A stretch of 32,377 nt of DNA from an uncultured Eggerthellaceae bacterium (lineage in GTDB: Bacteria > Actinomycetota > Coriobacteriia > Coriobacteriales > Eggerthellaceae), in contig CAZXOF010000002.1 in NCBI GenBank assembly GCA_964642255.1, forward strand, positions 1 to 32,377, written 5' to 3'. Positions 6,147-32,377 of this stretch are shown here, piece by piece (the stretch's first letter is position 1; the number at the start of each line of letters is the position of its first letter). The notes beneath the pieces were generated by a model that was not told the DNA's origin, searched no databases, and was given only the letters and a program-made list of their open reading frames with translations. Both the position numbers and the translations under genes were made by a program.

Positions 6147-6152
6147 GCGGCG

Positions 6153-7117: not shown

Positions 7118-7328
7118 ACCGCTAATACACCAACTACACGACACAAAGAAACGATGTTTTTATTCAGAGAAGCTCCTCGCAGCAAGCAGCACTGACTGTT
7201 AGCTGTAAGTAGCTTCTCATTGTATTGAGACGCCTTATTGGTCCATACTGCATGAGTGGCTACTGGCACACTTTGTCCAAACACCTAACATCACGCTTAT
7301 TTGTACAAGTAGTCCTAGACGACACACA

Positions 7329-11134: not shown

Positions 11135-11200
11135 TGTTTGAATCTCCTTCTCCCTCACATGCCGCCTGCAGTAGCTACTACCTTGTCACCCTGCATTTGT

Positions 11201-11823: not shown

Positions 11824-11826
11824 CTA

Positions 11827-12715: not shown

Positions 12716-13036
12716 CTAGCACTGTGCAAGCAGTGCCTCTTGTTCGCTTTCATCTTCTTCAATGAATGGCTCTGTAAAGAGTGGCTCACCATTTTGAGAT
12801 AGTTCAACCATGCCAGTAAGAACATCGACATATTGATAAGATTGACGTGCCGTGCGACCGCGTTTTCTTTCCACTTCCATGATAAACAACTGGGGGTGCA
12901 CTTGCGTAAGCACGCCTTCGCTCTCAACAATTTTTGAACGTCCCATATTTGCGCGCACCTTAACACGCTGACCAACGAAATCGTGTAATGTATCGTGAAT
13001 GGAATTGATGATTCCAGCTTGCTTTACCAAATCCAT
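12716..13036 (-). CDS. veg: Veg-family small DNA-binding/biofilm-associated protein (DUF1021) with an acidic C-terminal tail
   Basis: IHDTLHDFVGQRVKVRANMGRSKIVESEGVLTQVHPQLFIMEVERKRGRTARQSYQYVDVLTGMVEL aligns with the B. subtilis Veg pattern (L.G.LG.R..LKANGGR.K..E..G.L...YPS.F......SY.Y.D.LT..VEL). The position after rsmA matches Firmicutes synteny. I chose the ATG at 13036; the upstream 23 codons of the track ORF are non-conserved. Confidence 0.85.
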   Translation of the reverse strand: MDLVKQAGIINSIHDTLHDFVGQRVKVRANMGRSKIVESEGVLTQVHPQLFIMEVERKRGRTARQSYQYVDVLTGMVELSQNGEPLFTEPFIEEDESEQEALLAQC

Positions 13037-13231
13037 AATGTTGTATACCCTACTCTCGTAAAATAAAAAACTATGCCTAACTAAGTATTTTACCACCGCC
13101 GTCAAGCTTATCCTTATAAGCAGTTATGCAGGATATTACTAAGATAACTATTTGAGGAGATGACGCACCCACGCAACAGAACAGACACGACTTACCACTC
13201 TTCTATAACGACATCGCCCTATTGCACCACT

Positions 13232-14188
13232 CTACTGTGCCACGAATTTTAATTCTGATACTACAACGTGTCCGAGCGCAATAAATTCCTCAAGAGATAA
13301 ACTTTCGCCTCGCCGACGTGTATCAATACCCGCAGCAGCACATATATCAGGCAAAGCTGCTGCAATGCGAGCACCTTCATCCCCTCGACCAGCAAAAAAA
13401 GTACGGCATGAATTCGCAAGTGTTTTACGACGGTGTGCGAAAGCAGCATCCGCCATGAGGGCAGCAGCACGCACAGTTTGTTTGTCTAGTGGACAGTTAT
13501 CGGCATCGATAGGCGCCCATCGATCAAGACGAATGACAACAGATTCAACGTGTGGCGGTGGAAAAAAATTGTTTGGCCCCACAAGAAAGCGCCCAGCAAC
13601 ACGCGCGTGCAACGCAAGCTTTACAGTATAGGCACCGTAGTCTTTGGTTCCTGGACGAGCTGCCATGCGGTCAGCCACTTCTTTTTGCACCATGACTGTC
13701 GCACGATCTAGCTGTGGAAAATGCTCGAAATAATCCAGTACAACAGTCGCTGCAACAGCATAGGGCAGGTTTGCAATAAAAGCATTTGGTAGCGAGCAAT
13801 CAAGCTGTTGACATACCCCAACAAGGTCATCGAGTGATAGATCAAGTGCATCTTTTTCTATCAAAGCAAAGTGTGATACCCACGGTGCACAGGTCTGTGC
13901 AAGTACAACAGACAAATTTTTATCACGCTCAATCGAAATAACCGCACGTGCTGTTTTAAGCAAAGCGATGGTAAGCGTACCAATACCTGGACCCACTTCA
14001 AGCACAACATCCTTTATATCAAGCTCAGACAGGGCAAGTGTTTTGCGAATCACCCCATCATTCACAAGAAAGTTTTGCCCTAGTGCACGCTTTGTCACAA
14101 GACCATGTGAAGTCAGAACCGCAGCTGTAGCAGATGGCGTTGCAAGCGGTGAGAAAGAACTGCACTCAACCATGTGTGTGCTTTTCAT
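13232..14188 (-). CDS. rsmA: 16S rRNA (adenine1518/1519-N6)-dimethyltransferase RsmA/KsgA
   Basis: ALGQNFLVNDGVIRKTL...VLEVGPGIGTLTIALL...NLPY is the KsgA signature. The start is uncertain: ATG at 14188 or 14173. Either one overlaps the end of the upstream flavoprotein gene. Confidence 0.92.
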   Translation of the reverse strand: MKSTHMVECSSFSPLATPSATAAVLTSHGLVTKRALGQNFLVNDGVIRKTLALSELDIKDVVLEVGPGIGTLTIALLKTARAVISIERDKNLSVVLAQTCAPWVSHFALIEKDALDLSLDDLVGVCQQLDCSLPNAFIANLPYAVAATVVLDYFEHFPQLDRATVMVQKEVADRMAARPGTKDYGAYTVKLALHARVAGRFLVGPNNFFPPPHVESVVIRLDRWAPIDADNCPLDKQTVRAAALMADAAFAHRRKTLANSCRTFFAGRGDEGARIAAALPDICAAAGIDTRRRGESLSLEEFIALGHVVVSELKFVAQ

Positions 14189-14921
14189 TCGTACTGCGAG
14201 AACTGGTACAACTATCGATAGTATCTATAAAACGCATTGTTACATCCCGTGCATCATCAGTAATGATACCTGATGTATCGATGCTACCCACCCAGTCATA
14301 CACCGCCGCAAGCCGAAAACCAACGCAGGCAAAAGCAGAACGAACGATCCCAACTAACGGATCAAATCCATGCGGATCGCCTCCTTCTCCTACCACATGA
14401 AGCGTTAAAGGGCGCTTTTTCGGAAAACGCATACCATGCTCACGCATACTCCGTCGCGCCCAAAAATAGGGCTGCAAACGATCTAACAACGCCTTAAATT
14501 GCGCTGGTGGCCCGGAAAAATACACCGGTGATACGACAATCAACTCATCAGCCGCATCAAGGAGCTCAAACAGATCAGACATGTCATCATGAATGGAACA
14601 AGGGGCTGTTTTTACTACCGTATTTTGTGTTCGCGACATGCTTTTTTGTTTTGATGACGCAACCTTATCTCCTAGGGTCTCAGCGTGTATGGCATCAGGT
14701 TCCTTTTTCGATTTACTCTGCGGTTGCACACCATGCGTTGCATCGGGAATATATGCACACATGTCACATCCTGTGCAGGGCGCTATCGACAGCATTGCAA
14801 GCGGCACAATGGTCGCTCCATCATCAGGGCAGTCCTCCACACAAGCATCAAAGATCTCCGCTGCAAGTGCCACACTGCGCCCTTTTGCCCGTGACGAACC
14901 GGCAATAATCAGGCGCTCCAC
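14166..14921 (-). CDS. Iron-sulfur flavoprotein (Isf)-like NADPH-dependent FMN reductase family protein with a 52-aa insertion in the Cys motif
   Basis: From the GTG at 14921 (preceded by aaaggggggagagg) the sequence is VERLIIAGSSRAKGRS...APCTGCDMC...[52 aa]...CSIHDDMSDLFELLDAADELIVVSPVYFSGPPAQFKALLDRL. This matches the Isf pattern APCxxCxxC....C.IDDDM......AD.II...PVY.G..PAQLKAL.DR. The upstream 154 codons of the 405-aa track ORF overlap tatD and are a frame artefact. The start codon choice is uncertain (the GTG at 14960 is also possible). Confidence 0.7.
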   Translation of the reverse strand: MERLIIAGSSRAKGRSVALAAEIFDACVEDCPDDGATIVPLAMLSIAPCTGCDMCAYIPDATHGVQPQSKSKKEPDAIHAETLGDKVASSKQKSMSRTQNTVVKTAPCSIHDDMSDLFELLDAADELIVVSPVYFSGPPAQFKALLDRLQPYFWARRSMREHGMRFPKKRPLTLHVVGEGGDPHGFDPLVGIVRSAFACVGFRLAAVYDWVGSIDTSGIITDDARDVTMRFIDTIDSCTSSRSTNEKHTHG

Positions 14922-14997
14922 CCTCTCCCCCCTTTCTTTTAGCTTATACGATGTACCCACACGCTCACCTTTAATACAAGTGCTACGATCGCGTCTT

Positions 14998-16032
14998 TCA
15001 TCGAGACTGTTGCCATGGTAGCGAATCGCGATCAAGTAAATTACAGGTGGTAGTGAAAACCCTTTGCATAAGCGCTTCTTGAGTACCTGCAGTATTACAC
15101 CCTCGCACTTCGAACAGCTTCTCAAGCGTAAAGAGCATCTGCGCCGGCTCGCACGGCAAACCTCGCAAGGGTACAGGTGCCATATAAGGCGTATCTGTCT
15201 CAATAAGCAGGCGATCATCAGGTGTACATGCCGCAGCTTCCCGTACAGCATCGGCATTCGCAAAGGTAAGTGCTCCACCAAACGATACCGCACAGCCACG
15301 TTCCAACCATGGACGCAAGTCTTGTGAACCAATGGTGCAACAATGCAGCAACACACCTGCTTGCGGAACACCTTCGGCATCAAGAATAGTCAGTGCATCA
15401 TCATGCGCCTCACGTATATGAAGCACAACCGGCAGCCCTAACTCATGTGCCAGTGTAAGCTGACGCCGAAAGCTTTCAACTTGAAGCGGGCGAGGTGACA
15501 AATCATAGTGATAATCAAGACCGATTTCCCCAATAGCACATACCCGTCTATCGTGCACCCACATACGCATGGTCTGTTCAAGTTCTCCATCATAGAGGCG
15601 AGCGTTATGCGGATGACAGCCAACAGCAATACGCACGCGTGGAACACGCGGATTGCGCACAGATACCGTCTTTTCACTGTCTATTTCTTGAGCACGCAGT
15701 TCATTTACTTCATTGGTAAGCAAGGCATATGCTTTTTGCTGCCACTCACTTAACTTGCGAAAGGTCACATCACCATCTACCGTAGGGTCAACAATGGTAC
15801 AGATGAAGTGCACAAGATGCCGACCTGCACGCACAAGCGCTAAGGGGGGATCGGCTAGGCTATGGAGATGAGCATGAGCATCTGCCCGTGGCACTTTCGG
15901 CAGCGATGGAGTCTCTATGAGTCGAAACCGCCCTTTTTTTGCCTTGCGATAAAACAGCGCCTCATCTGTTATTCCGGGTAGCAAAGCCCACTCAAGGGTG
16001 CTATAGTGCTCCTGCTTTTGGAAAGACTCCAT
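14998..16032 (-). CDS. tatD: TatD-family metal-dependent hydrolase/DNase with an N-terminal extension
   Basis: ADAHAHLH...CAIGEIGLDYHY...VVLHIREA...LLHCC...ETDTPYMAP are the TatD motifs. GAGGG lies 6 nt before the ATG at 16032. It follows metG as in Firmicutes (metS-yabD). Confidence 0.9.
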   Translation of the reverse strand: MESFQKQEHYSTLEWALLPGITDEALFYRKAKKGRFRLIETPSLPKVPRADAHAHLHSLADPPLALVRAGRHLVHFICTIVDPTVDGDVTFRKLSEWQQKAYALLTNEVNELRAQEIDSEKTVSVRNPRVPRVRIAVGCHPHNARLYDGELEQTMRMWVHDRRVCAIGEIGLDYHYDLSPRPLQVESFRRQLTLAHELGLPVVLHIREAHDDALTILDAEGVPQAGVLLHCCTIGSQDLRPWLERGCAVSFGGALTFANADAVREAAACTPDDRLLIETDTPYMAPVPLRGLPCEPAQMLFTLEKLFEVRGCNTAGTQEALMQRVFTTTCNLLDRDSLPWQQSR

Positions 16033-16085
16033 GTCATACCCTCAAAAAACTCTACGCACTATCTTAACCTGCGTTTTTACTCCTG

Positions 16086-17666
16086 CTATAGATCAATCTC
16101 TTCCACATCAAGACGCGGAAACAGCGGATCACCCGCTTCAACGTCATTTCCTGCCGGCAAACTACCCCAAACACTTGCTAACTCAATATCGTCAACGGTC
16201 AAGATATCGCCAAGCGACAAACGCCGAAATACCTCGGCTGATGTATTGGGGACAAACGGTGCTAGATATAGCGCAATAATACGAATAGCCTCAAGCATGT
16301 TATACATCACTGCCGCAAGTTCACCATCTGAATCCTCAGTCTTTGCAAGCTTCCATGGCTCGGTTTCTTCGACATACAGGTTGACTCGACTTGCAAGCGA
16401 GTGAACCGCCGCTGCAGCGCCCTTAAAATCCGCACGAGTCATGCACGTATCATATGTTGCGTACAGACCTTCAGCGACTTCGCGCAACGGGTTGTTCATA
16501 ACCGCCTGCGCATCACATGGCACAACAGGAACCCGAGCGTTGCAATACTTTGCCACCATATTGAACACGCGATTTACCAAATTACCCCAAGTGTTTGCAA
16601 GATCAGCATTGTAAACTTGCACCATGCGCTCCATAGAGATTGACCCATCGGCACCAAACTCCATATCGGTCATGAAGTAGTAGCGATATGCATCGACACC
16701 AAAAATATCCACAAGATCTGCCGGAGAAAGAGCGTTGCCCTTTGACTTCGACATCTTTTCTCCCTTGGTAAGTAGAAAGCCATGACCAAACACCGTATGC
16801 ACAATCGGCAGCTTTGCCGCCATAAGCATTGCCGGCCAGATAACGCAGTGGAAGCGAATGATATCTTTGCCAACAAAGTGATACTGCATGGGCCAGCGTT
16901 TATCAAATTCGCCAGGACGACTCTCATCAGCATAGCCTATACCCGTAATATAGGCGAGCAATGCATCGGCCCACACATAACATACGTGCCCCTCATCAAA
17001 AGGAAGCGGAATACCCCAGTCAAAGGTAGAGCGCGAGATTGATAAATCCTTAAGCCCACTCTTTACAAACGAAACAACCTCATTACGTCGGGTCTCTGGC
17101 CGAATAAAATCGGGGTGCTCATCGTAATAAGCAAGAAGTCGATCTTGAAATTCGGAGAGCTTAAAAAACCAGTTCTCTTCGCCACTTGACTGCTGCACAG
17201 GACGCTTACACTCGGGGCAAATAAAAGTCCCGCTCTCATCTTGCTCAAGGTCACTTTCGGCATAATACGTTTCCTCATGCACGCAGTACCAGCCCTCATA
17301 CGAGCCTTTATAAAGATAACCTTTCTCATACAAGTCATTCCAAAACCGCTGCACCGTAGTAGCCTGACGTTGTTCTGTCGTGCGTACAAAATCGGTATAA
17401 GAGATGTCCAGCATCTTCCATGCGTCCTTAAAGGCAGGCACAAGTGAATCGCACCATGCTTGGGGTGTTGTGTCGTGCAAGGCAGCTGTTTCGGCAATCT
17501 TTTGCCCATGCTCGTCAAGGCCAGTGATGAAAGCAACGTCATAACCATTCATACGCTCATAGCGAGCAAGTGTATCAGCAGCAATGGTGCAATACGCCGT
17601 TCCAAGGTGCGGAGCGGCATTCACATAATAAATAGGCGTAGTAATAGAATACGATGGTTTGCGCAT
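16086..17666 (-). CDS. metG: Methionine--tRNA ligase (short form without the C-terminal tRNA-binding domain)
   Basis: MRKPSYSITTPIYYVNAAPHLGTAY (HIGH-type), the zinc knuckle CPECKRP, and KMSKS are all present. The ATG at 17666 follows GGAAGGAG. The track start at 17753 adds 29 non-conserved residues. Confidence 0.93.
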   Translation of the reverse strand: MRKPSYSITTPIYYVNAAPHLGTAYCTIAADTLARYERMNGYDVAFITGLDEHGQKIAETAALHDTTPQAWCDSLVPAFKDAWKMLDISYTDFVRTTEQRQATTVQRFWNDLYEKGYLYKGSYEGWYCVHEETYYAESDLEQDESGTFICPECKRPVQQSSGEENWFFKLSEFQDRLLAYYDEHPDFIRPETRRNEVVSFVKSGLKDLSISRSTFDWGIPLPFDEGHVCYVWADALLAYITGIGYADESRPGEFDKRWPMQYHFVGKDIIRFHCVIWPAMLMAAKLPIVHTVFGHGFLLTKGEKMSKSKGNALSPADLVDIFGVDAYRYYFMTDMEFGADGSISMERMVQVYNADLANTWGNLVNRVFNMVAKYCNARVPVVPCDAQAVMNNPLREVAEGLYATYDTCMTRADFKGAAAAVHSLASRVNLYVEETEPWKLAKTEDSDGELAAVMYNMLEAIRIIALYLAPFVPNTSAEVFRRLSLGDILTVDDIELASVWGSLPAGNDVEAGDPLFPRLDVEEIDL

Positions 17667-17787
17667 GAAATCGGATGCTCCTTCCGATGGGTAGGCTATG
17701 AGCTCAAGCGTAAATCGCATTGCACGTTTGTATAGTGCGTGCGATCTCATCACAGCCTATGCCGTAGCGTGTCTATTGAATCGTTTT

Positions 17788-17815
17788 ATTGTACGCACAG
17801 CACAGCACGGCGCAA
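17788..17815 (-). promoter_or_regulatory. Candidate metG promoter TTGCGC-16-TACAAT
   Basis: On the minus strand the -35 ttgcgc is at 17815-17810 and the -10 tacaat at 17793-17788. This predicts a leader of ~115 nt. Confidence 0.4.
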
Positions 17816-17947
17816 GACCTTATGAATTGTTTGTCCCTTGACCTTCATTGTGCTACGATGCCTCTGCTTAATTGCTTGGGAACTTTTAGAAGCATGACAC
17901 TTTGATGTATATGGTTCACGTCCCCTAAGCAGCAATCAAAATAAAAT

Positions 17948-18022
17948 GGGCGATTGGCGCAGCGGGAGCGCAGGTCCCTTACAAGGACAAGGTCGGGGGT
18001 TCAAATCCCTCATCGCCCACCA
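17948..18022 (+). tRNA. tRNA-Val (anticodon TAC), CCA encoded
   Basis: Hand-folded cloverleaf: acceptor GGGCGAT/ATCGCCC, D-arm GCGC-AGCGGGA-GCGC, anticodon arm GGTCC-CTTACAA-GGACA (one G27:A43 mismatch), variable AGGTC, T-arm GGGGG-TTCAAAT-CCCTC, discriminator A plus CCA. It closely resembles E. coli tRNA-Val(UAC). Confidence 0.9.
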
Positions 18023-18038
18023 TCTTTTACCTGAAGTC

Positions 18039-18677
18039 TTAAGTGCTGTTTTCACAATAGTCGAATGCGCGAATTGGCATTTTGCGTAAAGCGCGCAATA
18101 GCGGCATTCCTAACGCATACAACACTGCAGCTTCCCCAATCCCTGTTGCAACAAGGCCAAAGAGATACATGGGTACATAAATGCCATCCAACGAAATCGA
18201 CGTAAACGGGATGGTATACCACCCAATACCTTGTAGCATGAGCGGCAAATACGCCGGCACAATGAGTGCGTTTGCCACAACAAAACCTGCAAGAGCAAGA
18301 GCGGGACGGCTACGAAATCTCCAACACCACAGCGCACCCACAAGTGTTGCCGTGCTACCAAACACCACGTCAAGTAAGCCCAGCACACCGGTACCGTTAA
18401 GAGCGATTGACACAAGATTTGCAAGGGCACATCCTATCGTCAGTCCCGGAATGGCAGCGGGGGTAAACACGGCAAGCACACACGACGCCTCTGATATACG
18501 AAACTGAATTGGCCCCCAAGCTAAACCTTGTAGCAAGATCAGGGCAACACATGTCAATGCCGTATAGAGTGCTGCAATAAGCCCCGCTTGCGCAACATAG
18601 GACGTATGTATTCGAGCTGAAGAAGTACGACTGTGTTTAGGTACAACAGATGCTGTAGATGTATCGCTGTTTTTCAT
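18039..18677 (-). CDS. queT: QueT-family queuosine-precursor transporter (ECF S-component-like membrane protein)
   Basis: AQAGLIAALYTALTCVALILLQGLAWGPIQFRISEASCVLAVFTPAAIPGLTIGCALANL matches the conserved QueT (COG4708) core GPIQFR(I/V)SE. About 5-6 TM segments are present. The ATG at 18677 follows GGAGACAGGAA. The stop lies only 16 nt from the 3' end of the convergent tRNA-Val. Confidence 0.8.
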   Translation of the reverse strand: MKNSDTSTASVVPKHSRTSSARIHTSYVAQAGLIAALYTALTCVALILLQGLAWGPIQFRISEASCVLAVFTPAAIPGLTIGCALANLVSIALNGTGVLGLLDVVFGSTATLVGALWCWRFRSRPALALAGFVVANALIVPAYLPLMLQGIGWYTIPFTSISLDGIYVPMYLFGLVATGIGEAAVLYALGMPLLRALRKMPIRAFDYCENST

Positions 18678-18910
18678 GGAATATTCCTGTCTCCGCACGA
18701 CCAATATAGCGGCAAGAACGCATCGAGGAATGCTGCATTATGTGATAACGCAGAAGGATTTTCGATGCCACACGCCAAAATCTGTCGCGGGCTATGGGCA
18801 ACTTATAAGTCGCACGCACAGGGCCCATCGGTGCACGTGCGAAGCCATTGTTGACGCATAATGTCTACCCTCAATGGCCACAAAGCAGTATAACACCTAC
18901 CTCTTATAAC

Positions 18911-18944
18911 AAGAAGCAGGGCTCAAAGTCAAACCCTGCTTCTT
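18911..18944 (-). terminator. Strong hairpin downstream of rpsA (11-bp perfect stem)
   Basis: aagaagcaggg (18911-18921) pairs with ccctgcttctt (18934-18944) around a 12-nt loop. On the minus strand the stem ends in CUUCUUGUU. It lies ~140 nt after the rpsA stop. Confidence 0.6.
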
Positions 18945-19086
18945 GTATTACAAAGCTTATATTGCTCTTATGGCGCCTACAGTCTATATACGCCCCGTAT
19001 GCTATAGTCATACAGAGGTGTCAGTTTGTCTTACGATATGCTGCGACTATCTCGCAATATATATCAACCTAGCTTACAAACCAGTC

Positions 19087-20436
19087 TCATTCTGCGGCAG
19101 AAGCTACCTCACCACCAACATCACCTTCGGCAGAACCCGTAGTCTCAGCGTCAGTCTGTATAGCAACCTTGTCTGTAGATGAAGCATCCTGAGATGCATT
19201 GTCTTCGCTCTCTACAGCTGCATTCTCGGATGACTCATCAATTTTATCATTGTGATCACGGCTACTTTTCTTAGCATTGCGCACAGAACGCTCATCTACC
19301 TGAATGCTTTCGTCAATGGCGATTTCAATTCCAAGTTCTTCGGCAGCAGCCTTCATTGACAGAGATACCCGACGACGATCCAGATTCACTTCCATGATTT
19401 TCACCTTGACGGTCTCACCAGCCTTGGTGACCTGAGTTGGGGTATCAATGTGACGCATGGCCATCTCGGAGATATGAATTAAACCCTCAACACCGGGGCA
19501 CAACTCAACAAAGGCGCCAAACGGAACAACCTTTGTTACGCGACCATCAATAATGGAGCCAACCGGGAATTGCTCAACAAGTTTGATCCATGGATCAGGT
19601 GTGGTCTGCTTAAGACCAAGAGAGATGCGCTCACGCTGGGTATCCACATCAAGGACTTCAACTTCAACCTCTTCACCAACCTTGACAACCTCGGAAGGAT
19701 GATTGACATGATTCCATGACAGCTCAGAAATATGCACCAAACCATCAATGCCACCAAGATCAACAAAGGCACCAAAATCAACAATGGAAGAAACCGCACC
19801 CTTAAAACGCATACCTTTCGAAAGTTTGCTAAGGATCTCGGCACGCTCATTCTTGCGACCTTCTTCAAGCAATACGCGACGAGACAGCACCACATTGTTG
19901 CGATTGCGATCCATCTCAATAACACGAGCCTCAAGTTCGGTACCCAGATAGGTATCAAGGTCTTTAACGCGACGCAGATCAACAAGAGATGCCGGCAAAA
20001 AGCCACGCAGGCCAATGTCGAGAATCAGACCGCCCTTGACAACCTCAATAACCTCACCAGCAACACTTTGTCCGGCCTTAAACTGTTCTTCAACACGCTT
20101 CCACGCACGCTCGTATTCTGCACGCTTCTTAGAAAGAATAAGGCGGCCATCCTTGTCCTCTTTTTGGAGTACAAGCGCCTCAATCCGCTCACCTAACTCA
20201 ACTATTTCGGAAGGATCGGCATCTTTGCGAATCGACAACTCGCGAGACGGAATAACGCCTTCGCTTTTGAAACCGATGTCAACTAAGACTTCGTCACGCT
20301 CAATCTTTACGATTGTGCCATCAACAAGGTCTCCCTCGTCAAACTCGGTGAGCGTTCCGTCGATCATCTCGTTCATCTGTTCATCAGAGATGTCAGAGAA
20401 ATCGATCACAGAAGTGTTTTTGATTTCAGTCAACAC
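19087..20436 (-). CDS. rpsA: 30S ribosomal protein S1 (four S1 domains plus an acidic C-terminal tail)
   Basis: GDLVDGTIVKIERDEVLVDIGFKSEGVIPSRELS, GQSVAGEVIEVVKGGLILDIG, GMRFKGAVSSIVDFGAFVDLGGIDGLVHISELS and GSIIDGRVTKVVPFGAFVEL are repeated S1 motifs. The track start is the GTG at 20436 (the TTG at 20433 is also possible), with aaagggg just upstream. Confidence 0.93.
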   Translation of the reverse strand: MLTEIKNTSVIDFSDISDEQMNEMIDGTLTEFDEGDLVDGTIVKIERDEVLVDIGFKSEGVIPSRELSIRKDADPSEIVELGERIEALVLQKEDKDGRLILSKKRAEYERAWKRVEEQFKAGQSVAGEVIEVVKGGLILDIGLRGFLPASLVDLRRVKDLDTYLGTELEARVIEMDRNRNNVVLSRRVLLEEGRKNERAEILSKLSKGMRFKGAVSSIVDFGAFVDLGGIDGLVHISELSWNHVNHPSEVVKVGEEVEVEVLDVDTQRERISLGLKQTTPDPWIKLVEQFPVGSIIDGRVTKVVPFGAFVELCPGVEGLIHISEMAMRHIDTPTQVTKAGETVKVKIMEVNLDRRRVSLSMKAAAEELGIEIAIDESIQVDERSVRNAKKSSRDHNDKIDESSENAAVESEDNASQDASSTDKVAIQTDAETTGSAEGDVGGEVASAAE

Positions 20437-20594
20437 GGACCCCTTTCAAACAACAGGGACCCTTCGCCATGATTGATCGCTGACAGTAACCATGTTCGTC
20501 GTGCGAGCGGGTGTCCACTGCGCGCGCCGCCGCGCCAAACATGTCTCGGGGGCCTATACGGTTTTTCTGTGCAATCCTCTCGCACAATCGGTGA

Positions 20595-20603
20595 AGTATA
20601 TCA
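20595..20603 (-). promoter_or_regulatory. Candidate extended -10 element TGATATACT upstream of rpsA
   Basis: The minus-strand sequence is tgatatact (plus agtatatca, 20595-20603). No good -35 is present. It would give a ~150-nt GC-rich leader. Confidence 0.3.
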
Positions 20604-20710
20604 CGTACAACAAGACGCCTCGGCGGCATTTTGAGGTGTCCGAAAAGTCTCCTGAACGCAAGTCGTACGGCGGGGTTCACCCCCTTCTTGCCGAATAAGC
20701 CACCAAATTA

Positions 20711-21439
20711 CTAAGCTGGCTTATATACGTGCATAACACAGGCGTAAAAACAGAGCTGCTCACTGCTTGGCGCCGTAGGAGCTGTCTGCCCACGTTGAGC
20801 ATCGTCGGCAGCACTTACCTCATGCATCTCGAAATACTGTGGTAGTGCAAAACCAAGTGCTCTAAGCAGTGCCTCTATATCTTCTTGCGCCGGCGCCGCT
20901 TGAATACCATTACCTAAAGCACGAGCCCACTGTACAACACACGCATCACGCTTGCCGTCAGCTAAAACGGTCTCATTAACTAACAGCCCGCCCGGTTTAA
21001 GCACACGAAAAATCTCACGATATGTCATCTCAGGACAATACGCCAAATGCAGCGAGCAATTTGCAAAGACCATATCAACTGATTCGTCTACAAGATTGGC
21101 CATGCGCAAATCTTCTGGATGAGCGACATACAACTCAACTGCTCCTTCTACAAGCGCTCCACTACGCTGAGTCTGTATAATTAGGCGGCGTGCCTCATTA
21201 ATAAAGGATGCAGTCCAGTCGATACCAATGACGCGCCCACCTTCTCCTACCCGATCAGCAAGTTTGACAACCCCTTTACCTCGTCGACACCCAATATCAA
21301 GTACTGTCTTACCTGCTAGATCATTGGGAAGTGTCATTTTGCACAAGCTGGCAAAACTATGCTCGAACACAGCCTTTTCATAATACGCAGTACGCGCCGC
21401 TATATCGACCACATCCGCTGCATGTGTCGCACCATTCAT
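20711..21439 (-). CDS. Class I SAM-dependent methyltransferase (Methyltransf_11/25-like; substrate unknown)
   Basis: Motif I is TVLDIGCRRGKGV, post-I is GRVIGIDWT, and VDMVFANCSLHL...LKPGGLLV is also present. GAGGATAGG lies upstream of the ATG at 21439. Confidence 0.8.
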   Translation of the reverse strand: MNGATHAADVVDIAARTAYYEKAVFEHSFASLCKMTLPNDLAGKTVLDIGCRRGKGVVKLADRVGEGGRVIGIDWTASFINEARRLIIQTQRSGALVEGAVELYVAHPEDLRMANLVDESVDMVFANCSLHLAYCPEMTYREIFRVLKPGGLLVNETVLADGKRDACVVQWARALGNGIQAAPAQEDIEALLRALGFALPQYFEMHEVSAADDAQRGQTAPTAPSSEQLCFYACVMHVYKPA

Positions 21440-21466
21440 ATCGGCCTATCCTCGATCACATTGCCC

Positions 21467-21496
21467 CTATATCGCCGCAGATTCAGGCAATGTCAA
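21467..21496 (-). promoter_or_regulatory. Candidate promoter TTGACA-17/18-GATATA/ATATAG for the methyltransferase gene
   Basis: On the minus strand ttgaca is at 21496-21491, with gatata at 21473-21468 (or atatag at 21472-21467). It lies about 30 nt upstream of the ATG. Confidence 0.4.
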
Positions 21497-21614
21497 AAAC
21501 ACTTGGGCTAACCTTCATGGGACGATCTGTATGCTTCATCGCCCAAGACAGTACAATACAGACAGGACAGTTCGCTCAACATGCTGATTGTTGGACTATT
21601 TTGCTTCGCACACA

Positions 21615-24191
21615 TTAGCTTGAAGTATTTTTGGGCTCATCATTTGGCACAATCTTATCAGTCTTATTGGCCTTATCAGTCTTATCGGAGGCATCTGTAT
21701 CTGTAACTGCTGCTACAGTATCTTCTTCATTGATATGAGCACGAAATGCTTTTAACTGCGGATCGTTCGGCAGATACCCCAAGAAGCACCGTTGTATCTC
21801 GTCGCCATACTTCACCGCCAGCTTCGCGTATTTCTTCTCACGTGTCTTCCACATTGCATACAGCGGCGTTGCTACCGAAATGGTCGAGTACGCACCACAT
21901 ACTAAACCAACCGTCATAGCGAAGGCGAAATCTCGCAGCGTTTCACCACCAAAAAGTAGCATTGCCACAACCGGAATAAGTGCTGAAAGCGAAGTGTTGA
22001 TCGAGCGAATAATAACTTGATTGACCGAGCGGTTTGCCATAGTCATGAAAGTACAGTTCGAAGAAGACGCCTTCATATTCTCGTTGATACGGTGGAACAC
22101 AACTACCTTGTCGTACAGCGAGAAGCCCAAAATAGTGAGCAACGCTGCAACCGCATTCGGGGTAACTTCTCGACCAAACAACGCATATAGTCCTACAACA
22201 ATAATAATGTCGTGGATAAGCGCCGCAATGGCCGTAATGCCCATTTTGTATTCGAAGCGAATTGCGATATAGATGATGATCAGAACAAAAGACACGATAA
22301 GCGCAATAACTGACGACTGCACGATACTGGTACCCCAACTGGGCTGAATCGTTTCTACCTGATACGAATCGCTTGTCCACTCAAACACGCTTGCAACTTC
22401 ATTTGCAAGAGTAGTTGCTGTTGAAGCATCAGATTCGGTTGTGCGCACAATAAAGCCATTTGCCTCATCGGATGTTGTTGTTTGTATAACCGCATCTTCT
22501 TCGCCGAAGTCGGTAAAGGCTTCACGAATTTCCTCAATTGTTACGTCACCCGTATCGTTAAAGGTTATTGATGTGCCGCCCTGAAACTCGATACCAAAAC
22601 TTAAGCCTCGAATACCCACGATGGCAAAGGCTGCAACAATCATACATCCCGCAATGATGAGGAAGGTTTTGCGATGTCCCAAAAAGTTAATATCGCGCTT
22701 AATGAAGCGACCTCTCGGCTTTTCGGGTAGCGTACCAGCCTTTTGTTGTTCGACAAGCTCTTGACAATCTTTGATATTCCACAATGACGGATTTTTAGCG
22801 ATAGTACGCGGTGCTAACAATCTGATAAGCGGCATCATAAGGATAAACATCGCAACGATGTTGCAGGCAACACCAAGAGCAAGTGTGAGACCAAAGCCAC
22901 GAACTGACGATGACGCAAGGAAGAACAGGGCAAGCGCCGAAACAAGCGTAACGACATCAGCGTCAATCGCTGTAAAGATACCGTGCTTCACGCCATCAAG
23001 AGAAGCCGCCCTGATACTTCTGCCCATACGAATTTCCTCGCGAAAACGCTCGAGCACAAGAATAGAAGCGTCGGCCGCCATGCCAATAGTCAACACAATG
23101 CCTGCAATACCCGCCAAAGACAGGCTAAACAAATTGAACTGTGACAGAAGCGCCAACAGACCAAGGTAGAATACACCAAACACAAGCATCATAATGGCAG
23201 CAATAAAACCCAAGCCGCCATAGAAGGCGAACAGATACAGCAAGACAATAATCAAGCCAATTACCGCCACAATTACACCAGCAGCAAGTGCATCTTGTCC
23301 CAGTGTGGGACCAACAACCTGGCTTTGAATGTATTCAAAACTAACAGGTAGTGAACCACTTTCAAGCACCGTCATCATCGTGCGTGCTTCTTCGAGTGTA
23401 TAGTCACCTGTGATGGAAATATTGCCATCAGAAATCACCGACTGTACGGTGGGTGCCGATTGCACTTCTCCATCAAGAATGATGACAATCTGACCACTAG
23501 AATCTGCCAGATCGGCTGTAGCCTCGGCAAAAGCAGCCGTTCCTTCCTCATCAAGCGTAATGTTGACGGCATAATAACTTGACGTTGTAGATACACGACT
23601 AATCGAAACATCAGTAATGTTCGAGCCAGTAATAAGCGGTGTATACGTACCTTCTTCAACGGTGACCGTATATGTTGTGCCCAGTGGGAAGGCATTACCA
23701 AAGTCATCGTAGTAATAGGTTTCTTGCATGTAGTAGCCATACTCAATTGCAGTCACTACATCGTCATCAGTAAACGAGTCAAGACGCGCAAATACAAGAG
23801 AACCCGTGCGACCAATAGCTTCAAGCGCTTCTTCGGCATCAGAAATGCCAGGAATCTGTACAAGAATTTGATTGCTTCCTTGCAACTGCACCGTTGCCTC
23901 TGACGCACCAAGAGCATTCACGCGTTGCTCAATAATGTCGCGTGATGACTCCATATCTTCACTTGAAATCTCACTACCATCGGTACTTGTTGCTTCTAGC
24001 ACTACCGACAAGCCACCTTGCAAATCAAGGCCTAGGTTAATTTTGTCTTGCAACGGTGTAAATGCAATCACCGATACGATGACCAACACTATCGATACAA
24101 TCAGAAGCCGAATATTGCGACGATCACCGCTATACCTCGTGTTTTTCGTTTTCTTTGTTGTTGTCAATCGAGAGGTGCTCTTCGATGCCAT
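21615..24191 (-). CDS. secDF: Fused protein-export membrane protein SecDF
   Basis: The SecD half contains LGLDLQGGLSVVLEA and the periplasmic P1 domain. The SecF half contains GIEFQGGTSITF and a second 6-TM bundle. It is a single 858-aa ORF with a lysine-rich N-terminus and a DK-rich C-terminal tail. Confidence 0.93.
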   Translation of the reverse strand: MASKSTSRLTTTKKTKNTRYSGDRRNIRLLIVSIVLVIVSVIAFTPLQDKINLGLDLQGGLSVVLEATSTDGSEISSEDMESSRDIIEQRVNALGASEATVQLQGSNQILVQIPGISDAEEALEAIGRTGSLVFARLDSFTDDDVVTAIEYGYYMQETYYYDDFGNAFPLGTTYTVTVEEGTYTPLITGSNITDVSISRVSTTSSYYAVNITLDEEGTAAFAEATADLADSSGQIVIILDGEVQSAPTVQSVISDGNISITGDYTLEEARTMMTVLESGSLPVSFEYIQSQVVGPTLGQDALAAGVIVAVIGLIIVLLYLFAFYGGLGFIAAIMMLVFGVFYLGLLALLSQFNLFSLSLAGIAGIVLTIGMAADASILVLERFREEIRMGRSIRAASLDGVKHGIFTAIDADVVTLVSALALFFLASSSVRGFGLTLALGVACNIVAMFILMMPLIRLLAPRTIAKNPSLWNIKDCQELVEQQKAGTLPEKPRGRFIKRDINFLGHRKTFLIIAGCMIVAAFAIVGIRGLSFGIEFQGGTSITFNDTGDVTIEEIREAFTDFGEEDAVIQTTTSDEANGFIVRTTESDASTATTLANEVASVFEWTSDSYQVETIQPSWGTSIVQSSVIALIVSFVLIIIYIAIRFEYKMGITAIAALIHDIIIVVGLYALFGREVTPNAVAALLTILGFSLYDKVVVFHRINENMKASSSNCTFMTMANRSVNQVIIRSINTSLSALIPVVAMLLFGGETLRDFAFAMTVGLVCGAYSTISVATPLYAMWKTREKKYAKLAVKYGDEIQRCFLGYLPNDPQLKAFRAHINEEDTVAAVTDTDASDKTDKANKTDKIVPNDEPKNTSS
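21654..21685. repeat. Two exact copies of cttatcagtcttat with an 18-bp period inside the secDF 3' end
   Basis: The copies at 21654-21667 and 21672-21685 are identical. They encode the DKTDKANKTDK part of the SecDF tail. Confidence 0.7.
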
Positions 24192-24428
24192 AGCCTAGAT
24201 TCTTTCTTCTCTTTTGCTTGCGTGCATGTTGATTGCGCAAAACACTCTTCTTATGTTACGTGTCCGCAGCGACACAAAAGGAATGGTGCATAACTTCATA
24301 CACCCGTAACACAATCCTACAAGAGCGTCTTCCTATTTTCAGCACTAAGCAATATAGATACCGAACAACTTACCTACAATCGTGTTATTGTCCCACAAAC
24401 TATCCCATTGAGAAAAAACTTCACTTGA

Positions 24429-25769
24429 TTATTGTGCCAATTCGCGCTCCACCACCTGAGCAAGAGCATGAGCGTAGCACGCTGCTGTTTCGTAATCGAC
24501 TGTCTCAACCATAATGCGCACTACAGGCTCGGTGCCACTTGGACGTACAATTACACGACCATTGCTACCCATCTCTGCTTCTGCGGCATGCACGGCATCC
24601 CATACAGTAGTTGCGCTTTCAAGTGCATGTTTATCATCAACAGGTACGTTTACTATCACTTGGGGAAAGCGCTTCATCACACACACTGCTTCGTCCGGTG
24701 CCTTACCTGCACGCTGACAAGCAGCAAGAAATTGCAATGCAGTCATCAGTCCATCTCCTGTTGAGTTGTGCTCAAGAAAAATGAGATGGCCACTCTGCTC
24801 GCCACCGAGCACAAAGCCTCCTTCAAGCAAGGCCTCAAGTACATAGCGATCTCCCACCTGCGTCTGCACAAGCGCAATACCAGCATTCTGCATTGCATGT
24901 ACCAGTCCCAAATTGCACATGAGGGTTGACACAAGAGTATTACCTGTCAGCATTCCGCGCTCACGCAAGTCAAGTGCGCACACAGCTGCCATCATATCGC
25001 CATCAATCTCGTTGCCATGTGCATCAAGCATCATGACACGATCAGCATCACCATCATGCGCAATCCCGATATCGGCTCCACTTTGCGCAACAAGTGCGCG
25101 CAAGGGATCCAGGTGTGTCGATCCGCATGCCACATTAATGTCAAGACCGTTGAAATCATCATTGATAGCCACTACATTCGCACCAAGTCGGCGCAAAGCT
25201 TCAGCACTTGTAAGCGATGCCGAACCATGACCAGCATCAAGTGCAACGCACAGGCCATCAAAGCGTATGTTTTGACTTTCGATAGCCGCTACTGCATGAG
25301 CGATATAAAGCTCACATGCATTGTTAACTGGCACAAGTACACCAACCGCATCACCACGTGGCACATTGTCTGCCACAGCGCCTCCAGATGTCACAAAGGA
25401 TTCAATCTCGTCTTCAAGAGCATCAGACAGCTTAAAGCCCTGAGAATCGAAAATCTTGATGCCGTTATATTCAGGCGGATTATGACTTGCCGAGATCATG
25501 ATGCCACCATCGCAGTGCAACTCACGCACCAGATAGGCAACCGCTGGTGTGGGAATAATTCCTGCACACAGCACTGTTGTCCCCATTGACATAAGGCCTG
25601 CTGCCACAGCAGATTCAAGCATGTCGCTTGACAATCGCGTATCTTTTCCCACAAGAATTGTCTGACCCTGAAAATATGCAGTTGCCTGGCCAAGCTTAAA
25701 AGCAAGATCACAGCTTAGTTCGGTATTTGCAATGCCTCGCACACCGTCGGTTCCAAACAGTCTCGGCAT
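24429..25769 (-). CDS. glmM: Phosphoglucosamine mutase
   Basis: MPRLFGTDGVRGIAN, the active-site SASHNPPEYNGIK, DGDADR and GGEQSGH are all present. AAAGGGGG lies 6 nt upstream of the ATG. Confidence 0.96.
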   Translation of the reverse strand: MPRLFGTDGVRGIANTELSCDLAFKLGQATAYFQGQTILVGKDTRLSSDMLESAVAAGLMSMGTTVLCAGIIPTPAVAYLVRELHCDGGIMISASHNPPEYNGIKIFDSQGFKLSDALEDEIESFVTSGGAVADNVPRGDAVGVLVPVNNACELYIAHAVAAIESQNIRFDGLCVALDAGHGSASLTSAEALRRLGANVVAINDDFNGLDINVACGSTHLDPLRALVAQSGADIGIAHDGDADRVMMLDAHGNEIDGDMMAAVCALDLRERGMLTGNTLVSTLMCNLGLVHAMQNAGIALVQTQVGDRYVLEALLEGGFVLGGEQSGHLIFLEHNSTGDGLMTALQFLAACQRAGKAPDEAVCVMKRFPQVIVNVPVDDKHALESATTVWDAVHAAEAEMGSNGRVIVRPSGTEPVVRIMVETVDYETAACYAHALAQVVERELAQ

Positions 25770-26076: not shown

Positions 26077-29000
26077 CTAACCGCCAATAAGATCATCATT
26101 TTGGGTTGAGCGCTGCTCTTCATCTTTGCCCGTCAGACCAAAACCAAACGAGCCAAGTGATGAAACCGACCCTAAGAGCTCATCAAGCTCCTCGATATTT
26201 CGATGATACGAACGTGGCGGCAAAGCCTCGCCCAACATATCTTCACCCTCTGTGTTAAAGGTCACCGGTTCATCTCCGCCAATTAAAATCGTATCGTCTG
26301 GCGAAAACACCATATCAAGCAACTGCGTCATATCATCACTGCTAGCAGCCAAATCATTTTCGATCACATGCAGTAAATCGCGCTCGGCAAGACCTTCTTT
26401 GAGTTCTTCAATAGCCTTCACACCAATGCCTTCAATACGCAAAAGATCATCTTCGGTGTGACCTACCAAATCGGCGACCGTTTCAATACCAGCCTCAGAA
26501 AACTTATTCGCCCAACGTTGGGACACACCCAAATCATCGTAGACATAGAGACGTGCATCCTCATCAGAGAGGTTACCGCGCCCACCGAGAGCAGCAGAGC
26601 CATAGTAGCCACCATAATTTAAGAACCCTTGAGGATCAAGTGACCAATCTTGCGGTTGAGGCATCAATTCTTCTACCTCGCGCAATACATCTGGCGCATA
26701 ATCAGGCAAGATGTTTTCGCTCGCCCTTTCACTATTAACCGGTGCGCCCTTATAGGTGAGACGAACATCACGATAGCGGTGCAAGCCAGTACCTGCGGGA
26801 ATGGGTTTACCAATAACAACATTTTCTTTCAAGCCAGCAAGATGATCTACCTTACTTTCGATAGCCGCATCGGTAAGTACTTTAGTGGTTTCCTGGAACG
26901 ACGCCGCCGACAAGAACGATTCCGTAGCAAGCGAAGCCTTGGTGATCCCAAGCAATAGCGGCTGTCCCACCGGTGGATTCTTGCCCTCTGCTATAAGTTC
27001 ATTAGCAATACGCTCAAACTCAAAGCGATTCATTTGACGACCCGGCAACAAATCAGAGTCACCCGCATCAATAACTGCAATCTTGCGCAGCATTTGACGC
27101 GCAATGACTTCGATGTGCTTGTCATTAATATCTACACCTTGCGACACATAAACACCTTGTACCTGACTGACGATATAGCGCAAGGTCGTGTTTGGATCGG
27201 CAAGGCGCAAGAGATCATGTGGGTTAACCGAACCCTTTGTGAGCTGCTGACCAACCTCAACCTCACACCCATCCACAATACCGGGCAGCATGGTTGCACG
27301 TGCCGATACCACATATTCGCGATAATTACCCTCTTGATCGTGAATCATGAGGGTTTTGGAAGTCTTGTCACCAGAAATTTGCAAGGTGCCAGAAATCTCT
27401 GCAAGCACTGCCTGACCCTTGGGCTTGCGCGCTTCAAAAAGCTCCTGAACACGAGGCAAACCGTGTGTAATGTCTTCACCCGCAACACCACCGGTGTGGA
27501 AGGTGCGCATCGTAAGCTGCGTGCCAGGCTCGCCAATCGACTGAGCAGCAATAATACCAACCGCTGTGCCAACATTAACCGGGCGCGCAATCGCAAGATC
27601 CCAGCCGTAACACTTCTGACACACACCCTGTTCGGCTCGACAGGTCATGATCGTACGAATTGTCACACTTGCAATACCTGTCGCGATAAGTTGTTGCAGC
27701 TGCGTTAACGAAGAAAGATATTCACCCGCTTCAAGCAGCACTTCTCCGTCTGCACTCACAACCGGCTCCATCAGGCAACGGCCTATAAGATTGTTATCAA
27801 CATCACCCTTATCATCAACAATCGAATAGTTCACGCCTTCAGTAGTTCCGCAATCAATTTCGCGAATGATGACATCTTGCGCCACATCGACAAGACGACG
27901 CGTAAGATAACCCGAGTCGGCTGTGCGCAAAGCTGTGTCGGCCAAACCCTTGCGAGCACCATGGGTTGAAATGAAGTACTCAAGTACAGAAAGGCCCTCG
28001 CGGAAGTTCGCTTTGATAGGGCGATCGATAATCTCGCCCTTCGGGTCAGACATAAGGCCACGCATACCCGCAAGTTGACGAATCTGCTTAATGTTGCCTC
28101 GAGCACCTGAGAAAGCCATCATATAGATAGGATTGAACTTATCGAAGTTGTCGGCCATTGCATCGCCAACTTCTTCATTTGCCTCGTTCCAAATATCAAC
28201 AACTTGGCGGTGACGCTCCTCGTCACTCATAAGACCCATTTCATAGTCTTCATCAATGGCAGCAACTTTGGCGTCAGCCTGACTAAGAATTTCAGCCTTG
28301 TTTGGAGGTACCGTTGCGTCATACACCGACACCGTGACACCAGCGCGTGTTGCATAATGAAAGCCCATGCTCTTCAGGCCATCGAGAATGCTTGGCACTT
28401 CGGAAAGCTCGTAGCGATTACAAACGTCTTCAACTAGACGGCTGATCTCGCTTTTGTTCATCTCATAGTTAAGATACTCATAGTCATCGGGCAGTACACT
28501 ATTAAAGGTGATGCGCCCAATGGTTGTTTCAATACGCTCACCCGCCTTGCGCTCTTCAAGTACACCATAGGCTGTTGCAATAGTGGTGTCGTTTGTAAGA
28601 CGCACCTGAATTTTTGCCTGCAAATCAAGATCAGCACGAGCATCATAGGCATTCAGCGCATCCCCAAAATCGCAGAATGCACGCCCTTCACCTAGGAAGC
28701 CATCACGAGCGGCCGTAAGGTAATACAAACCAATAATCATATCTTGCGTAGGCACAGTGAGTGGACGGCCATGAGCAGGTGATTTGATGTTATTGGCAGA
28801 AAGCATTAGCACACGAGCCTCAGCTTGCGCTTCAGCACCCAACGGTACGTGAACAGCCATCTGGTCACCATCAAAATCGGCATTAAAAGCTGTGCATACT
28901 AACGGGTGTAACTTAATAGCCTTACCCTCAACAAGCACCGGCTCAAAGGCTTGAATACCCAAGCGGTGAAGCGTTGGTGCACGATTAAGCAGCACTGGGT

Positions 29001-30492
29001 GCTCGCCGATAACCTCTTCCAGCACGTCCCATACATAGGTAGCGCCACGATCAACCGCACGCTTAGCCGCCTTGATGTTCGCTGCGTATTCAAGTTCTAC
29101 CAAACGCTTCATCACGAAAGGCTTGAACAGCTCAAGTGCCATTTGGGATGGCAAACCACACTGGTGCAGCTTAAGCTGCGGTCCCACAACGATAACCGAA
29201 CGCCCAGAGTAATCAACGCGTTTACCCAGCAGGTTTTGACGGAAGCGACCTTGCTTACCTTTAAGCATGTCAGACAGCGACTTAAGCGGGCGATTACCAG
29301 GGCCGGTAACAGGACGACCGCGCCGTCCATTGTCAAACAGACTGTCGACAGCCTCTTGCAGCATACGCTTCTCATTATTCACGATGATCTCGGGTGCACC
29401 AAGATCAAGTAAGCGCTTGAGACGGTTGTTGCGATTGATAACACGACGATATAAATCGTTGAGGTCACTTGTGGCAAACCTGCCGCCATCCAGCTGCACC
29501 ATTGGACGTAGATCAGGCGGAATAACCGGTATGACATCAAGAATCATATCGACCGGTTCGTTGTCAGACTTTAAGAAAGCATCAACCACTTTGAGACGCT
29601 TAATAGCCTTTGCACGCTTTTGCCCCTTGCCATTTTGAATGATGTCGCGCAGCATCTCTGCTGTTTCTTCTAGGTCAATTGCCTCAAGCAAATCACGCAC
29701 TGCTTCAGCACCCATGCCACCCGTAAAGTATTCGCGATAGTTTGTATACATCTCGCGATACAGTTCTTCATCTGTAATGAGCTGCTTTGGCTCAATCTTT
29801 AAGAACTGATCGAAAGCGTCTTGACGCAACGCCTTGCGCTCATTGAATTCCTCATAGAGATCAGCAATCTCTTCTTCCACCTCTTCAGGAGAAAGAAGCT
29901 CATCCTCATCATATTCATCGAAGAAATCATCTTCTTCAGGTGTATAGTCGGTTGACATGTGACGCACAGACTCGATAAGCCGATCACGTTCGGCATCAAG
30001 TTCTTCAAGGTCAGCGGCAAGTTCGTCGCGCAGCTCTTCAAGGTCTTCTTCGCGCGCTTCTTTATCGACAGAAGTAATAATCGAACCAGCGAAGTAAAGC
30101 ACTTCCTCAAGCTCTTTAGGTGGAATATCAAGCAGATAACCCAAACGCGATGGCGAGCCCTTGAAATACCAAATATGGCTCACCGGTGCAGCAAGCTCAA
30201 TATGCCCCATGCGCTCACGACGCACGCGGGCACGCGTCACTTCAACACCACAACGCTCGCATACAATACCCTTGAAACGAACACGTTTGTACTTACCGCA
30301 GGCACATTCCCAATCTTTCGTTGGGCCAAAAATCTTCTCACAGAACAAACCGTCTTTTTCCGGCTTGAGTGTACGATAGTTAATCGTCTCGGGCTTTTTT
30401 ACCTCGCCACATGACCAACCACGAATGCTTTCAGCATCCGCAAGAGAGATGCGCAAAGCGTCGAAATTATTTACGTCGAATTCCGTCGTCAT
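26077..30492 (-). CDS. rpoC: DNA-directed RNA polymerase subunit beta-prime, unusually long (1471 aa), with the actinobacterial acidic clamp insertion and a ~160-aa C-terminal extension
   Basis: The zinc-ribbon [23 protein letters not shown], the catalytic NADFDGDQM, and the trigger loop/bridge helix regions are present. The ATG abuts the rpoB stop directly (TAAATG at 30495-30490), and GGAGAGGAG lies inside the rpoB 3' end. Confidence 0.98.

Positions 30493-32377
<1,885 letters not shown>

Follow-up and report, generated by a model that had tools for sequence, protein, structure and literature searches.

The DNA analysed here is a stretch of 32,377 nucleotides (the window; contig CAZXOF010000002.1) from an uncultured Eggerthellaceae bacterium. 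It carries an rpoC gene, which encodes the β′ subunit of RNA polymerase (RNAP) and whose product is called window RpoC in the following. This protein is a normal full-length β′ of the class Coriobacteriia with an accessory module built in at its C-terminus, and the folded part of that module is a paralogue of the RNAP α subunit's C-terminal domain (α-CTD). An initial annotation of the window had pointed to this domain and had interpreted it as a third α-CTD-like module that binds DNA or activators. We examine below how firmly the domain can be identified, whether the extension is authentic, and which role it might have in the enzyme.

The rpoC gene and its product

The gene lies on the minus strand, which had not been stated before, and its features are listed in Table 1. 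Pfam domains Rpb1 1-5 are all found in window RpoC above their cut-offs, and the rpoC equivalog TIGR02386, also above cut-off, spans residues 13-1241. There is an insert at approximately residues 131-300, at the position of the actinobacterial β′i1. A 608-aa open reading frame (ORF) abuts the rpoC start and is taken to be a putative rpoB; rpoB-rpoC adjacency with Pfam labels is also seen in the related loci L081 and L085.

None of the solved β′ chains is homologous to window RpoC beyond about residue 1245 (1266 for mycobacteria). The solved chains stop 25-45 residues past this point, while window RpoC runs on for ~205 residues. The string quoted in the initial annotation as the end of the conserved core begins at residue 1234, and the GGYYGS motif that was used there as a landmark occupies residues 1294-1299. 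Beyond GGYYGS, where ~160 further residues had been given, we count 172.

Table 1. Features of rpoC, of the rest of the window, and of related genes in other loci. Coordinates refer to the window unless a locus is named.
Feature	Coordinates	Strand	Extent or basis
rpoC, β′ of the long Coriobacteriia form	26077..30492	minus	1471 aa + stop; ORF list and translation
β′ catalytic core	26758..30492	minus	residues 1-1245; homology to solved β′ chains
linker	26566..26757	minus	residues 1246-1309; alignments A1 and A2
linker helix motif, 22 aa	26644-26709	minus	residues 1262-1283
α-CTD-like double helix-hairpin-helix, (HhH)2, domain	26374..26565	minus	residues 1310-1373; PF03118, AlphaFold2 (AF2), Foldseek, BLASTP
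conserved acidic post-domain segment	26149..26373	minus	residues 1374-1448; alignments
variable, strongly acidic C-terminal end	26080..26148	minus	residues 1449-1471; conservation, composition
608-aa ORF, putative rpoB	30493..32319	minus	
glmM, secDF, methyltransferase, rpsA, queT, metG, tatD, flavodoxin-like ORF, ksgA, veg, rplM, rpsI (downstream of rpoC)	11431-25769	minus	
405-aa flavodoxin-like ORF	14166-15383	minus	overlaps the tatD ORF by 386 bases
tatD ORF	14998-16032	minus	
type III glutamine synthetase	9044-11158		
operon: ferredoxin-like, NarJ-like chaperone, 771-aa molybdopterin oxidoreductase, 4Fe-4S subunit, NrfD-type membrane subunit	within 1756-8231	plus	
AraC-family regulator	7329-8231	minus	
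P0142	L081 10001-14659; L082 884-5542		1552 aa
P0198	L083 8773-12045		1090 aa
P0345	L085 9831-10271; L086 2347-2787; L087 6394-6834		146 aa

Identity of the C-terminal domain

Residues 1310-1373 are a genuine α-CTD paralogue with the five-helix (HhH)2 fold. The comparison with Pfam suggested in the initial annotation gives a match of PF03118 to the whole protein at 36.8 bits (E 3e-9), well over the curated cut-off of 23.8, in which residues 1319-1370 correspond to model positions 16-67. When only the tail is searched, the score is 40.8 bits (E 1.8e-10). HHH_5 (PF14520) stays below its cut-off of 27, with 22.1 bits for the whole of RpoC and 25.5 bits for the tail. The NCBIfam equivalogs for RpoA (TIGR02027 and the NF0035xx models) match residues 1317-1373 only, and they do so with 21-33 bits against cut-offs of 228-523; the protein is no α subunit, and the domain sits on β′.

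A phmmer search of the PDB with the tail gave 54 matches, of which the top 50 are all RpoA α-CTDs (best, B. subtilis, E 3e-6). With BLASTP, the domain can be aligned without gaps to E. coli K-12 RpoA, with 39% identity over α residues 254-312, and a residue of window RpoC has the number of its E. coli α equivalent plus 1061. The K-12 sequence used in this alignment agrees with the one given in the initial annotation. Also the position given there for the α-CTD-like stretch, ~26374-26541, is nearly exact: it reads DDLGVSQRW...AERDL and is located at 26374-26538, that is, residues 1319-1373.

The structure prediction leads to the same identification. An AF2 model of the tail fragment was built on a 60-sequence alignment, and the predicted local distance difference test (pLDDT) score is 91-95 at fragment residues 61-120, which correspond to the α-CTD-like domain. 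According to Foldseek, this domain superposes on solved α-CTDs from S. coelicolor, Synechococcus and B. subtilis with template-modelling (TM) scores of 0.83-0.87 (7vpd_S and 9dvt_A, TM 0.87, root-mean-square deviation (rmsd) 1.2 Å; 1z3e_B, TM 0.83, rmsd 1.5 Å). The AlphaFold test proposed for the tail thus returns a domain with pLDDT >90 that can be placed on experimental structures. Its second hairpin carries the canonical GIG-x-K HhH motif.

Distribution and authenticity of the extension

When one genome from each GTDB species was scanned, the tail was found to be encoded in at least 560 species genomes. The best 80 of these are mostly labelled as Eggerthellaceae genera, among them Gordonibacter, Adlercreutzia, Senegalimassilia, Eggerthella, Raoultibacter, Slackia, Cryptobacterium and Denitrobacterium, while a few have other or generic labels. 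Further tails, ~48% identical, form a second group, and one protein in it bears the NCBI name Atopobiaceae. If this group does represent Atopobiaceae, the extension spans both main orders of the class Coriobacteriia. Window RpoC itself is at most 87% identical to that of any GTDB species representative, and no exact copy of it is on record. The GC content of the window is 0.48, compared to a median of 0.62 in related rpoC loci (range 0.46-0.68), and the source seems to be a low-GC lineage of the Eggerthellaceae that lacks close representatives in the collections searched.

It could be argued that the extension is an assembly or frameshift artefact, as the initial annotation had considered, or else a fusion to a gene downstream of it that is neutral and decaying. 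In some metagenomic gene calls the tail does appear as a short protein of its own, for example as P0345, which has 146 aa, is seen on 20 contigs and was called downstream of a 1327-aa rpoC. As the tail of a split gene, however, P0345 had to be rejected. Since its start codon is an internal one within helix 1 (MSQRW...), and since it is preceded in the scaffold by a run of Ns with a change of frame, P0345 is a calling artefact. Among 82 related loci, a stop-free frame of at least 1400 codons passes through the α-CTD motif in 61, while the other 21 are ended by a contig edge or, in three metagenome-assembled genomes, broken elsewhere. The median length of β′ in the family is 1471 aa. The GC content of the extension (0.48) is practically that of the core (0.49), and the extension is conserved to the same degree as the core, as will be discussed below. 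Moreover, a curated full-length hidden Markov model exists for this form of β′, namely NCBIfam NF011498 (PRK14906.1), which aligns positions 1-1454 of its 1459 with residues 2-1460 of window RpoC at 2847.3 bits (cut-off 1437). The full-length match, the at least 560 genomes and the 61 intact frames exclude the artefact that had been named as the alternative, and we assign next to no probability to an accidental or decaying fusion as a whole.

Some observations on the public records can be added here. Gene callers often give the tail as a separate 146-aa protein behind a shortened rpoC, and the public name of such fragments, 'alpha C-terminal domain-containing protein', is an annotation trap. 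On the P0345 contigs, rpoC is followed by a gene for an extracytoplasmic function (ECF) σ factor, a 358-aa gene and rpsL-rpsG-fusA. A further protein, P0307 (346 aa, on an ENA contig of 1170 bp), has precomputed Pfam labels for both PF03118 and PF00009 (GTP_EFTU). Here, a tail of the Atopobiaceae type appears to run into a translational GTPase, which on such a very short contig is probably a chimera or a read-through call.

NF011498 is the family to which window RpoC belongs, with no structural difference. The model serves for naming only, and the product name that it shows is simply that of β′. With the tail alone it scores 292 bits, at model positions 1262-1454. The corresponding CDD entry, PRK14906, presumably has the title 'DNA-directed RNA polymerase subunit beta'/alpha domain fusion protein; Provisional', and fragments at NCBI are named 'DNA-directed RNA polymerase subunit alpha C-terminal domain-containing protein, partial'. 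The architecture is thus already catalogued, through NF011498, Pfam labels and NCBI names, and is not new. The novelty implied in the initial annotation, which knew of no functional description of such a fusion, is to this extent overstated. A full-text search, which did not cover Lane & Darst 2010, found no paper that describes a β′/α-CTD fusion or its function, and PMC5121209 makes no mention of Coriobacteriia.

Linker and acidic segment

Conservation was calculated as the mean pairwise column identity in 60 Eggerthellaceae sequences. It is 0.87 for the β′ catalytic core and 0.89 for the α-CTD-like domain, and for the part behind the domain it is 0.98 at residues 1386-1400 and 0.89 at 1401-1440. 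Only the extreme end, 1451-1471, is variable (0.34). As judged from these alignments, the module, i.e. the domain together with most of the acidic tail, is shown to be under purifying selection equal to that on the catalytic core.

The linker of ~65 residues consists of one conserved helix (0.82) and a subsequent variable stretch rich in Gly and Tyr (0.60). In the AF2 model the helix is located at fragment residues 14-22, and the Gly/Tyr-rich part has pLDDT <50. The helix motif is also present in P0142, a distant RpoC of metagenomic origin that is 52% identical to window RpoC and likewise has a PF03118 domain at its C-terminus. In P0142 this domain is located at the extreme end of the chain, after an acidic linker of ~110 residues, and no tail follows.

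Behind the domain, the initial annotation had described an acidic tail of ~100 residues. Size and charge are right, since residues 1374-1471 comprise 98 aa with a net charge of -18, and the mean over the 60 homologues is -24 for ~95 residues. The segment is not a plain tail, however, because ~70 residues after the domain are made up of conserved motifs. There are four of them, at 1386-1400, 1401-1412, 1416-1429 and 1433-1441, the last one reading IEELDELLG. AF2 predicts helices for this segment, with pLDDT of only 55-69, or 50-69 for the motifs, and helices that are conserved yet modelled with low confidence fit segments that fold on a partner. The very C-termini of the homologues are D/E-rich runs of variable length.

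One could ask whether the acidic tail is the main element. It would then be a cis-tethered mimic of nucleic acid, like the acidic tail of δ or σ region 1.1, which competes with non-specific DNA or RNA for the channels of the enzyme and in this way sharpens promoter selectivity or aids recycling, the α-CTD-like domain being mainly a spacer or an anchor. The high negative charge seen throughout the homologues is in line with this proposal, as are the attachment of the tail to RNAP itself and the fact that the extreme end is kept as a D/E-rich composition rather than as a sequence. On the other hand, most of the tail consists of specific motifs with conservation of 0.89-0.98, which is unexpected for a pure polyanion, and P0142 has no acidic tail behind its domain at all. 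Pfam scans of the whole RpoC or of the tail (E ≤ 1) gave no match to the HARE-HTH domain of δ. We consider this explanation to be unlikely; a polyanion role of the δ or σ1.1 type fits the variable end only.

The module in other proteins

P0142 and the proteins discussed in this section come from a search of representative proteins with a profile of alignment A1. This profile held ~100 positions of the β′ core, and most of the best 150 matches are β′ core fragments. In P0142, a stretch that reads DVSKYLGVAFDPDE...VLLGGPVSFN resembles the post-domain motif of window RpoC and is placed before the domain. The pairwise similarity is weak (E 0.005), but taken at face value it looks as if the acidic motif precedes the domain here and the module is permuted. 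When the tail of P0142, whose translation was confirmed, was used to look for homologues, there was no match, and P0142 was not recovered either.

P0198, encoded on an ENA metagenome scaffold, is not an RNAP protein. Its N-terminus, SYRRSPEELDALLSS..GFGF, is 45% identical to residues 1428-1467 of window RpoC (E 2e-6), and behind it come a near-copy of the α-CTD-like domain and a Sigma70_r4-like match. The gene is the last one of a cluster that PADLOC matches as SspD/BrxP-like, SspB, SspC and SspA. This is a phosphorothioation defence locus, and P0198 may be a defence-associated protein that carries the module of the β′ tail. The apparent co-occurrence of motifs and domain in P0142 and P0198, whatever their order, suggests that the acidic motifs and the domain act as one working unit.

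Six other metagenomic proteins of 452-1031 aa (P0134, P0141, P0143, P0149, P0170 and P0173) have 6-11 matches to the tail profile each, and Pfam assigns 6-11 PF03118 stretches to each of them. P0173 has a hydrophobic N-terminus.

Possible function

We now turn our attention to what the module might do. The C-terminus of β′ is located on the surface of RNAP, beside ω, and C-terminal fusions to β′, such as green fluorescent protein (GFP) or affinity tags, are tolerated. Dove & Hochschild are reported to have found, in 1998, that proteins fused to ω activate transcription via a partner bound near -62. Since β′ fusions are tolerated and ω fusions activate, a tether that starts from the β′ C-terminus can reach upstream promoter DNA. 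From this point on the surface, the domain would sweep over tens of Å and behave as an extra α-CTD, and the reach of a tether of ~65 residues would include upstream promoter DNA, σ region 4, the α-CTDs or the RNA-exit region. The domain could touch the backbone or minor groove of promoter-near DNA with the surface described below, and in addition, or in place of this, σ or transcription factors could dock on it. For the conserved acidic helices, folding would probably require a partner; they might bind another protein or RNAP surface, or mask the basic face of the domain as a DNA mimic. The explanation that we favour, with a probability of roughly 50%, is that the β′-tethered α-CTD paralogue adds a contact to DNA and/or regulators and that the acidic helices are partner-binding motifs or a mask that folds back.

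The residues that bear on DNA binding were counted in 60 homologous tails. Four main DNA-contact residues of the E. coli α-CTD are retained, R265 (R1326), N268 (N1329) and K298 (K1359) in 59 of the tails each and G296 (G1357) in all 60. The Arg and Asn of the 265 determinant, which the initial annotation had claimed to be present, are thus a near-constant feature of the homologues. C269 is replaced by a lysine (K1330) in 59 tails. Four contact residues kept and one Lys gained would be hard to account for if there were no nucleic-acid ligand. The equivalents of D258 and D259 are also kept in the β′ tails.

There are, however, a number of points that weigh against a role in DNA binding or in regulator contact of the α-CTD type. 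S299 is an alanine (A1360) in all 60 tails, and the σ-contact residue E261 is a glycine in 58. The mean net charge of the domain is -6.8 (range -9 to -4), whereas it is 0 for E. coli α 254-312. DNA binding is not assured, because the domain carries a charge of -4 to -9 and because both C269 and S299 are replaced, and the acidity, calculated from composition, weakens the case. The acidic C-terminal HhH domains of NusA make protein-protein contacts and are not known to bind DNA. The alignments further show nearly all positions of helix 1 and of both hairpins to be invariant, a pattern that several protein contacts would explain no less well than DNA binding would. As to the acidic motifs, their possible docking on the C-terminal part of the core was modelled in a further AF2 run, in which the last 352 residues, with 135 residues of the β′ core added, were used; the motifs stayed at pLDDT ~45-58 with no rise, and neither fold-back nor docking of the motifs is supported by the models. 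The extension is absent from all solved RNAP structures that were compared. Finally, we infer rather than observe a 'third' α-CTD per enzyme, and the domain may be either an extra α-CTD or a relocated one. A tblastn search with an M. tuberculosis RpoA query, run on the window and on 84 related loci, detected no rpoA in either, and this probe matched only the RpoC tail (~40-45% identity over ~55 aa). It is assumed here that the α subunit of the source lineage keeps its own CTD.

The same observations lead to another option, namely that the module is exclusively a protein-protein hub. DNA binding would have been lost, and the domain, jointly with the amphipathic acidic motifs, would recruit or retain a partner, for instance NusA, σ region 4, the real α-CTDs or a factor specific to the lineage. 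In position, this would make it the bacterial equivalent of the C-terminal extension on which factors land in the largest subunit of eukaryotes. The negative charge of the domain and its near-invariance on all faces, not just the one towards DNA, are consistent with a hub. So are the post-domain motifs, which combine high conservation with a low-confidence model as segments that fold on a partner do, and the reuse of the module in a protein outside RNAP, P0198. What this option does not readily explain are the four DNA-contact residues, kept in 59-60 of 60 tails together with the Lys at C269, and the canonical HhH motif of the second hairpin. Overall, it is the main rival, less probable than the broader role in DNA and/or regulator contact.

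As regards the initial annotation, the structural part of its interpretation is borne out by PF03118, AF2 and Foldseek. As to the functional part, we rate a third DNA/activator-binding module as plausible. A more specific, speculative and rather improbable version of the favoured role is that the β′ tail is a Coriobacteriia-specific general transcription factor tethered in cis, with the α-CTD paralogue reading promoter-near DNA or docking regulators and the acidic helices acting as a switch. Equally tentatively, the enzyme would then have an α-CTD in a position unlike any known, and the switch would be either a DNA-mimicking mask or a set of partner-binding motifs. Should this hold, the tail would constitute a bacterial equivalent of a C-terminal extension on which factors land in the largest subunit, and P0198 would point to RNAP or transcribed DNA as what the module targets, with a defence system having co-opted it.

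Coriobacteriia, among them Eggerthella, Gordonibacter, Adlercreutzia, Slackia and the Atopobiaceae, are prominent in the gut and metabolise both drugs and polyphenols. To our knowledge, there is hardly any work on their transcription machinery. Should the α-CTD paralogue on β′ make contact with DNA or regulators, their promoter architecture and activator logic would differ from those of E. coli, Bacillus and Mycobacterium, and promoter prediction and the design of genetic tools for these bacteria would have to allow for the β′ domain. It would also provide a natural experiment on an α-CTD that is tethered elsewhere on RNAP. The existence of the β′ extension is already captured by curated models.

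Other genes in the window

Between rpoC and glmM, nothing resembling a promoter or a terminator was found. The gene order behind rpoC is unusual, as the usual rpsL-rpsG-fusA-tuf cluster is not downstream. Within this series of genes, the 405-aa flavodoxin-like ORF has its Pfam matches (FMN_red, Flavodoxin_2) confined to residues ~259-356, and for this reason its listed TTG start is probably too far upstream. The plus-strand operon resembles a respiratory reductase of the dimethyl sulfoxide (DMSO) reductase family, of a kind common in Eggerthellaceae.

Comparison with known systems

The closest relative of the β′ domain is the α-CTD of RpoA itself. The two have in common the fold, 39% sequence identity (for E. 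coli α), the equivalents of R265, N268, G296 and K298, and the attachment to an RNAP subunit through a flexible linker. They differ in the site of attachment, which for the β′ copy is near ω and not on the α N-terminal domain, and in number, since there are two α-CTDs per enzyme and one β′ domain. The β′ domain has a charge of ~-7 instead of 0 and carries the exchanges C269K, S299A and E261G, and α lacks the conserved acidic segment that follows the β′ domain.

The AR1 and AR2 domains of NusA from γ-proteobacteria are acidic (HhH)2 domains with roles in protein-protein contact and autoinhibition. What they share with the β′ module is that an (HhH)2 domain of acidic character sits at the C-terminus of a transcription protein. 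However, HHH_5 stays below its cut-off for the β′ tail, and the best matches of the tail, in both sequence and structure, are α-CTDs and not NusA.

In Firmicutes, the δ subunit (RpoE) of RNAP is a polypeptide of its own, with a HARE-HTH domain at the N-terminus and a long polyanionic tail. Here, too, a folded domain associated with RNAP is followed by a polyanionic tail, and δ may be an analogue as far as the acidic end is concerned, but the likeness is compositional only, as most of the β′ tail consists of motifs conserved in sequence.

Lineage-specific insertions in β and β′, such as the actinobacterial β′i1 (Lane & Darst 2010, as cited in PMC5511352), are similarly clade-restricted accretions on a large RNAP subunit. 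The β′ tail differs from them in being not an insertion into the core but a C-terminal appendage, with a domain that is borrowed from another subunit of the same enzyme.

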